Origin: Octopus vulgaris | Lineage: Eukaryota | Direction of reading: 5' to 3' | Length of the DNA stretch: 64,000 nucleotides | Assembly (NCBI GenBank): GCA_951406725.2 | Contig: OX597834.1 | Location: 33,852,001-33,916,000, forward strand | Part shown: one piece after another, positions 15,701 through 18,700 of the stretch | How positions within the stretch are numbered: the first letter of the stretch is position 1 | Layout: the number at the start of each line of letters is the position of its first letter | Notes under the pieces: model-generated | What the model was told of the DNA's origin: nothing | The model's input: only the letters and a program-made list of their open reading frames with translations | Database searches by the model: none | Program-made: the position numbers and the translations under genes

Positions 15701-18700
15701 GAATCAATTTACCCCATCCCCTCAAAATTGCTGGCCTTGTACCGAAATTTCAAAGAGCCAGTCCACCTGGCCCCTATTTTTAACCTTTATATACTACATA
15801 TATGTCCCTTCCTTTTCCTTGTATACTTACTTTTTTTATACATAATTATTTTATCATTTCATTATATGTAAACCCCAACATTTTATGTTTATCTTTGTAT
15901 TGTTCCCACATCCTTCGCCCTGGTGGCAAATAAATGAAATCACAATCACCATTAATATTATTGTTGTTGTTATTATTTTTATTATTAATATTATTATTAT
16001 TCAGTCATCTTATTTCTATTGCATGCTTTCACTACACATGCTCATTGCCTCAAGTACGTGCAGTGCTATGATTTGATTTTGTTATTTTCACTATAATATA
16101 TATCCGTTGTGCCTGGCAGTGTTATTTTCAGTACGTTAATCATGTTTTTAAATTCTGTGATTATAGTTGTGTAGGTGTCCGCATCATCATCATCATCATT
16201 ACTACTACAACTACTATAACTATCATTGTTGTTGTTATTGTTAATATTATGCTATGTTTTGGTTTTGCTTTAATTTATACAAACTGCACCCAAGTGACAT
16301 CAAGGAACAACAGGGTTTTGCCCTTGAGGGTGCTAACACGTGAGGTGCCATGCAATTGAAAACACTGATTTTTGTGAGAGAAAACACACGCACACACAGA
16401 GTGAGTAAGGTTGCATCAACATGGAGAGAAATTTATGAAGAACATATGAGATACCGATTATTATGATCTTTTGGAATCTTCGTTTTTGGGGGCTGCCAGG
16501 GATTTGTGTCTACTTACTTGTTGGCTCCTCTTGATATCATTCCAACTATTATTATTATTATTATTATTATTATTATTATTTGGAGACCCCCTTCGGTCAC
16601 GACACAGACCATGGGATTGCACCTAGAAAGTTACCCTCCTAGACACAAGTCCGGGCAAGGTTGTTTATGGAAGACCAGCAGTCGCCCATGCATACCGGCC
16701 TCCCCTCTCCACGCCACCAGTGTTATCCAAGGGAAAGGTAAAGGGGCCGATACAGCTTGGCACCAGTGACGTCGCAACTCATTTCTACAGTTGAGTGAAC
16801 TGGAGCAACATAAAAATAAAGTGCCTTGCTCAAGAACACAACACGCAGCCCAGTCCGGAATTCAAGCTCACAACCTCACGATCGTAAGCTCGACGCTCTA
16901 ACCACTGAGCCATGCGCCTTATTATTATTATTATTATTGATTTGACTCCAGTTCTGGCAGGATTTATGTGGGCAGCGGGTTACAATCTGTAACCTTAGGT
17001 ATCCACAATCTTTCAATAGATTTTCAAGTGCTTAGAACCTTCCTGGTAATCTTTCCTGTCTCTGAAGCCAAACTTCCTGCAGAAGCTCTACAAGACGTTC
17101 TATTCTAATCTCCTTCAACCATTTGTCTATATATTTGCTTACAGTTTCCAATGCACCAATTATTATAGCCACAGCCTTTACAATTATTATTATTATTATT
17201 ATTTTTATTATTATCATTATTATTATTATTTTGCTAACCTTTCCTTTTCATTGTATACCATGTATACTTACTCCTTTTTTTTGTTTATTTATTCATTTTA
17301 TCATTTCATTATATGTAAACCCCAACACTTTATATCTGTTTTGTATTGTCCCCCTCATCCTTTGCCCTGGTGGCAAATAAATGAAATCATCATCATTATT
17401 ATTATTATTACTATTATTATAATTGTTATTGTTAATGTTATTGTTGTCATTAGTTTTATTATTATTATTATTATTACTATTATTACTATTATTATAATTG
17501 TTATTGTAAATGTTGTTGTTGTTAGTTTTATTATTATAATTATTATTATTATTATTATTATTATTATTATTATTATTATTAGTAGTAGTAGTAGTAGTAG
17601 TAGTAGTAGTAGTAAAGATTAATATTATTGTTATTTGTGTAAAGATTGCAAGTGCAACAACAGATGCAATGTGGAAAAAACCAAACCAAAGAAAAAAATT
17701 TTATAAAACACACCACGCAAAAATGTGTAGAAATATAGAAAATATATATATATATATATATATATATATATATATATATATATATATATATAACAGAAAA
17801 ACCGCACACAGGAAGGTGTGTTCATGTGTTAGTTCAAAGAATGAAGGAACTACAATCTACTTTGTTCTTCTTTTTGTTTTTTCTTATAATTTTAAATTCA
17901 CACAGTGAAATAGGTGAAGAAAATTTGAATAAAATCAGTGAAATTTAAGATTATTCACAAACTGGTGTTGAAAAACGCAAAGAAAGGATGAAAACAGAAG
18001 AAAATAAGTACGAAAACCGACAACAACCTCAGCAAAAATCAAACCACAAAAAAAAATTGGATGTTAAAAATCAAAATGGTGGTACTTACATCTTCATACT
18101 GAAAAATAAACAGCAGCAGATGATAAGTAATCAGGTTAAAATATATAAAAGAAGTTTATTTGATGGAGAAACACAGAAATGTTCTATTAATCTCAGATTA
18201 ATGTTACTGAATATGAAACTTATTGGTCGATACCTCTCAATTGCAGTAATTGTTTATACACACACACACACACATATATATATATATATATATTTAAATG
18301 CAAAAATGTATGAAGATAAATACATCTATATATATATATATATATATATAAATATATTCATACTAATATATAAATATATGAATGCATAAATACATACATA
18401 CATACATACAACACACACACACAAATCTGCATATGCAATAACTCTAAATATTGCCCACATGTGCACAAATACTTTGTTGATGTTGAAGTTCCAATGAAGG
18501 AGCCTTGGATCTAGATTAGAAACCAGTTCTTTCTCTATTGGCAAGACATCTTGAAATTAAACTGAATAATAGCATATATATATATATATATGTTTGTTCA
18601 CATATGTATCACAGCCAGCCAAGCGTTTGTCATTTCTGATAATTTAAAAGGTGATTAAAGCATTCACTGATGTTGTGGATAGCTGTCTGGCTGAATTAAA

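Follow-up and report, generated by a model that had tools for sequence, protein, structure and literature searches.

The eMIC domain of SRRM3/4-type regulators of microexons was reportedly defined in a 2019 paper. Neural microexons that depend on SRRM3/4 are 3-27 nt long, keep the reading frame, and combine a strong donor with a long AG-free zone and UGC near the acceptor. Two studies of eMIC targets in fly and mammals describe strong branch points together with AG-free zones of considerable length and a UGC close to the acceptor (PMC8797185; 10.1101/2024.09.17.613571). The latter further reports UGC in 74-79% of SRRM4 targets and that it can be bypassed (10.1101/2024.09.17.613571), so that the motif is neither necessary nor specific. 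Myosins are among the genes concerned: zebrafish myo3b has two 21-nt exons (DreEX0048696 and DreEX0048697) that depend on Srrm3: their inclusion in 5-day eyes is 87.9 and 74.3, but only 15.5 and 5.6, respectively, when srrm3 is mutated, although myo3b mRNA is also lower in these mutants and the drop may partly reflect photoreceptor loss (PMC9303857, supplement 11; all 18 supplementary files were scanned for MYO3B and 12 of the 18 for MYO3A). Furthermore, class III myosins phosphorylated in loop 2 have lower ATPase activity and actin affinity (PMC10982375, on MYO3A, and PMC6981383), and a study of plant myosin XI reports that loop 2 swaps alter velocity (PMC8872768).

We analysed a window of 64,000 nt from Octopus vulgaris (contig OX597834.1, positions 33,852,001 to 33,916,000; the term denotes this whole stretch, and positions below count from its first letter), for which a first-pass annotation had proposed a microexon, YED, preceded by TGC repeats. 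Three 9-nt exons, FEN, YED and YKT, lie in this order in the 23.6-kb loop 2 intron of an Octopus class III myosin gene. The class assignment is based on the Pkinase, Myosin_head and IQ domains found by Pfam in the O. sinensis myosin-IIIb-like isoform X1 (P0130), to which the exons in the window match. A scan of both strands of the whole window for candidates of 3-39 nt returned, at 9 nt, only FEN, YED and YKT. The features are as follows, in the order of transcription after the first line.

624..46742, minus strand: 19 larger class III myosin exons, from the end of the kinase to the end of the motor domain (tblastn of O. sinensis isoform X1)
27297..27388, minus strand: upstream exon, coding for the first half of loop 2
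25448..25456, minus strand: FEN, 9-nt microexon, 60 nt upstream without TGC; spliced in runs X1, X2, X6 and X8 and in the cuttlefish-like contigs P0001/P0122
18099..18140, minus strand: 3' splice-site region of YED with predicted branch-point-like TTAAC (-38) and CTGAT (-33), from the sequence
18113..18118, minus strand: tandem TGC pair (-20 and -17) that may act as an eMIC enhancer, with overlapping YGCY/CUG motifs, from the sequence
18090..18098, minus strand: YED, 9-nt cassette microexon, phase 0; from the sequence, spliced contigs of runs X3, X18, X2 and X6, RefSeq O. sinensis isoforms and Argonauta GAB1606866.1
18083..18089, minus strand: GTAAGTA donor of YED, from the sequence
6308..6316, minus strand: YKT, 9-nt microexon, 60 nt upstream without TGC; spliced in run X6 and in RefSeq isoforms X1, X3 and X4
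3588..3709, minus strand: downstream exon, coding for the end of loop 2 and the helix after it

The exon letters TATGAAGAT encode Y-E-D in frame on the minus strand (18098-18090), with a 21-nt acceptor stretch immediately 5'. The TGC motifs that the first-pass annotation had placed upstream of the exon are indeed present in the acceptor adjoining TATGAAGAT, where its "repeats" consist of two TGC (-20 and -17) and one TGT after them. The AG-exclusion zone of YED comprises 83 nt and contains both branch-point-like motifs; in 6 of the 19 constitutive acceptors of the same gene, this zone is longer. As expected of an eMIC target, UGC lies between the branch-point-like motifs (-38/-33) and the AG, the chance level of a TGC pair being 4-15%, and the acceptor resembles the layout of UGC and a long AG-free zone described for such targets. 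With a length within 3-27 nt, canonical splice sites, and both included and skipped transcripts known, YED is a cassette microexon. The pattern TTTCAG-N9-GTAAGTA has 180 matches in the genome (2.8 Gb, both strands) compared to 122 for its reversed control, but occurs twice, at FEN and YED, on one strand of this single 23.6-kb intron. Such a pair on one intron strand goes far beyond chance, and YED is spliced into transcript contigs of runs X3, X18, X2 and X6; YED is thus almost certainly a real microexon, in agreement with the initial proposal.

How the three exons are combined was read from transcript contigs, which were anchored on the upstream exon and obtained from 8 of 24 listed runs; none of the listed runs is on record as RNA, but because they contain spliced joints, these contigs represent transcripts, and they were used for presence only, depth not being read as inclusion level. 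Among these eight runs, YED occurred alone in X3 and X18, FEN was joined to YED in X2, all three microexons were found together in X6, the upstream exon was spliced directly to the downstream exon in X12 and X13, and contigs of X1 and X8 ended after FEN. YED was thus present in four of the six resolved runs, which come from three studies and from unlabelled tissues; this could mean broad inclusion. Patterns also varied between samples of a single study (X12 compared to X1, and X3 compared to X2). All three exons are already annotated in RefSeq, where the isoforms of O. sinensis comprise seven of the eight possible combinations; among the 15 members listed from a cluster of 17, the missing form is the one with only YKT. 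The gene models of O. vulgaris and O. bimaculoides skip all three. FEN, YED and YKT are therefore used combinatorially and not as either/or exons, as is known of the mini-exon A of PTPRD and of troponin T. The first-pass annotation had regarded YED as one choice among alternatives, and this was wrong: zero, one, two and three exons occur in contigs and RefSeq isoforms. While the equal length and phase of the three exons resemble those of duplicated, mutually exclusive exons, a model in which they exclude each other and YED is the neural choice is extremely improbable given the contigs with FEN and YED (X2), with all three (X6) and with none (X12, X13), and the same forms in RefSeq. A mutually exclusive cluster with exactly one exon per transcript is ruled out by the joined and empty forms, unless the joined ones are assembly artefacts.

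The three microexons have 4-6 of 9 bases in common and the same donor. Their flanks are no more alike than shuffled sequences in six of six comparisons, a result to be read with the caveat that old duplicates would no longer show such a signal. Within the same intron, two near-identical copies of a repeat (8216-8263 and 5687-5734, minus strand), approximately 2.5 kb apart, flank YKT. Elsewhere, in the tail of the octopus myosin III gene (L014:4800), a 9-residue stretch, VGRTPYYDA, is optional; it was rejected as a microexon, as the stretch is made by an alternative donor and not by a separate exon.

Taken alone, the TGC pair is only suggestive. Two TGC between -30 and -6 were found in none of 32 constitutive acceptors of the octopus myosin III gene, four of which have one TGC (the 32 comprise sets of 19 and 13, the predicted first exon being left out of the second set). 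Of 183 control sites (YAG, filtered and rich in pyrimidines, with real acceptors among them), 7 have such a pair, as do 15% of 47 unfiltered intron decoys and 10.4% of 5000 dinucleotide shuffles. Genome-wide, TGC before 9-nt microexon-shaped sites gave 50 near compared to 37 far matches, mostly repeats, and the corresponding 10-nt control (824 matches) was swamped by an abundant interspersed repeat. This very abundant repeat itself bears TGC, and in some of its copies an acceptor and a donor are perfectly spaced around 10 nt (824 matches compared to 172 in the control); it is possible that it provides raw material for cryptic microexons. An origin of FEN, YED and YKT from it was rejected, as a profile of 66 copies, taken from the window and from fetched loci, had no match at the three loci (E 10). 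A repeat with TGC and a 9-nt microexon-shaped motif is furthermore present in 10 copies on contig C29 (18150141-29729674).

Judged from its splice signals, eMIC control of YED is plausible. YED has in common with SRRM3/4-dependent neural microexons the length, the kept frame and the UGC near the acceptor, and its GTAAGTA donor and 83-nt AG-free zone resemble theirs, although constitutive acceptors of the gene can have a longer zone. It differs from them in that it is not preceded by any clear tract of alternating UC, a usual feature of eMIC targets, and in that it belongs to a cluster whose two other members are spliced although no TGC was found within 60 nt upstream of either. The last point also fits a different reading, in which YED is tissue-regulated but CUGCUGCUGU is a target of MBNL- or CELF-type proteins, which might for instance repress the exon in muscle, and not of an eMIC protein. 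MBNL binds YGCY and, when bound upstream, tends to repress the exon; CUGCUGCUGU contains overlapping YGCY and CUG/UGU motifs, and CELF sites fit the TGC element as well. Yet the exon length, AG-free zone, strong donor and UGC position of YED match the eMIC pattern, and Srrm3 dependence is seen in the fish exon that likely occupies the equivalent position, so that we consider control by MBNL or CELF rather unlikely.

A gene for an eMIC-type protein is present in the octopus genome: an SRRM_C exon above the Pfam cut-off lies on contig C25 and is followed, 24 kb on, by an intact exon, the two forming the SRRM_C/eMIC-type exon pair of a Srrm2/3/4 gene (C25:37317480-37317629 and approximately 37341781-37341955). 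We take this two-exon SRRM_C motif to be the eMIC domain. In Haliotis, isoforms with and without the equivalent of the exon following SRRM_C are known. Srrm2/3/4 N-terminal exons appear to lie approximately 1.3-1.5 Mb upstream on C25, so that either the gene is very long or the distance stems from the assembly. At C27:11247-12113, 288 residues match the N-terminal part of Srrm2 in a single unbroken stretch, possibly a retrocopy or paralogue.

With regard to the protein, alignment to the known structures of myosins VIIa and X is interrupted between residues 930 and 987, and the microexons (966-974) fall into this gap between motor-domain blocks, which corresponds to loop 2; the proposed location of YED is hence confirmed. 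Counting K+R-D-E, the charge of loop 2 is +5 with no microexon, +4 with FEN, +3 with YED, +2 with FEN and YED, +5 with FEN and YKT, +4 with YED and YKT, and +3 with all three. The further claim that YED adds two acidic residues also holds, as reflected in the change from +5 to +3. By analogy to the effects of loop 2 phosphorylation and loop 2 swaps, the acidic residues of YED are likely to weaken the grip on actin. Like YED, phosphorylation of class III myosins (MYO3A and Limulus myosin III) adds negative charge to this loop, but it is reversible and post-translational, whereas the charge of the octopus exon is fixed by splicing. The 9-nt, retina-enriched microexon of MYO6 (Glu-Asp-Glu, HsaEX0041235) is likewise an acidic insert in a loop of a myosin motor domain, though in insert-1 of class VI near the nucleotide site and not in loop 2. 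Since an aromatic residue is present in every mollusc insert seen at the loop 2 site, YED may have a role other than charge, such as packing or as a tyrosine phospho-site.

In our most likely reading, which we hold with somewhat better than even confidence, eMIC-driven inclusion of YED in neural or sensory cells has a charge effect on actin binding. We infer that an eMIC isoform of Srrm2/3/4 would bind the UGC pair and promote inclusion in neurons or sensory cells, and that YED would enter loop 2 alone or in combination with its neighbors, where its two acidic residues would weaken actin binding with a kinetic effect akin to that of inhibitory loop 2 phosphorylation. FEN and YKT, without UGC, would likely follow a different rule or threshold. 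The opposite reading is that all three microexons are broadly included at intermediate levels through strong splice sites, that the TGC pair is due to chance, and that the isoforms are near-neutral in a loop that is expected to be disordered. The chance level of the pair (4-15%), the existence of seven of eight combinations and the wide differences in loop 2 among species agree with such neutrality. On the other hand, FEN is common to octopods and cuttlefish and YED to Octopus and Argonauta even though the flanking exon diverged, the dominant form is not the same across samples, and an optional microexon recurs at the loop 2 position in bivalves, gastropods and fish, all of which makes near-neutrality quite improbable.

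The comparison across animals supplies these last observations. Myosin III of Argonauta contains FEN and YED (GAB1606866.1), and FEN was found in two transcript contigs (P0001/P0122) that are 96-99% identical to MYO3 of Sepia pharaonis; these two contigs, the only informative ones from decapodiforms, contain neither YED nor YKT. In bivalves and gastropods, a different insert of 5-6 residues (IYSAL, IYGAL, IYLNAL, IYNKL or IYGRLF) is found at the same site between the loop 2 exons and, as in octopus, is optional among isoforms, with Mytilus having two that can be stacked. These inserts correspond to 15-18 nt, are uncharged or basic, and are unrelated in sequence to the octopus microexons save for the aromatic residue. 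In fish MYO3B, the optional insert comprises 7 residues; of 59 matches in vertebrates, 20 contain SPKYLLK, 21 no insert and 8 another insert, while 10 could not be parsed. As inserts at the octopus site are neutral (IYSAL-type, in molluscs) or basic (SPKYLLK, in fish) elsewhere, conservation of an acidic function does not extend beyond coleoids.

Comparison of 13 zebrafish isoforms with X1 revealed that 7 residues are optional at two places, the kinase domain and loop 2, matching the two 21-nt exons; it is therefore very likely, from this correspondence, that one of the Srrm3-dependent myo3b exons encodes the loop 2 insert SPKYLLK. So assigned, the zebrafish microexon belongs to a class III myosin, follows the equivalent exon and has the same phase as those of octopus, but it adds 7 basic/hydrophobic residues through a single exon, compared to three acidic residues for YED and three exons in octopus. 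Because the fish insert is basic and has no sequence homology to octopus, this points to convergence of position (or replacement); positional convergence of microexons is described in 10.64898/2026.09.05.749416. The second optional insert, in the kinase domain, is carried by zebrafish isoforms P0203-P0216, and no such insert was seen among the octopus isoforms compared. In a tree of 17 motor sequences (6 of 23 chosen proteins, without the anchor motif, were left out), coleoids form a clade whose branch is long compared to those of other molluscs (0.69 changes per column), which suggests that the coleoid motor has evolved faster.

Our literature search, mostly outside subscription journals, returned no published description of octopus myosin III microexons. 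Myosin is absent from the main text of 10.64898/2026.09.05.749416, whose supplements with octopus data may list the exons.

The three microexons likely tune the grip of myosin III on actin. More tentatively, they may form a three-switch dial of coleoids that is under different controls and shifts the charge of the loop one step at a time according to cell type. In this dial, YED would be a hard-wired mimic of loop 2 phosphorylation, driven by eMIC in photoreceptors or neurons and convergent with the Srrm3-dependent fish microexon of opposite charge. As three exons of equal length and with the same donor are located in one intron and UGC precedes YED only, FEN and YKT serve as built-in controls, and the locus provides a compact test of the UGC/eMIC code in molluscs. 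Furthermore, natural isoforms that change the charge of loop 2 in steps allow for a test of actin-affinity tuning of class III myosins in cephalopod sensory cells, and the recurrence of unrelated microexons at the loop 2 site in octopus, bivalves, snails and fish marks this site as a hotspot of convergent splicing.
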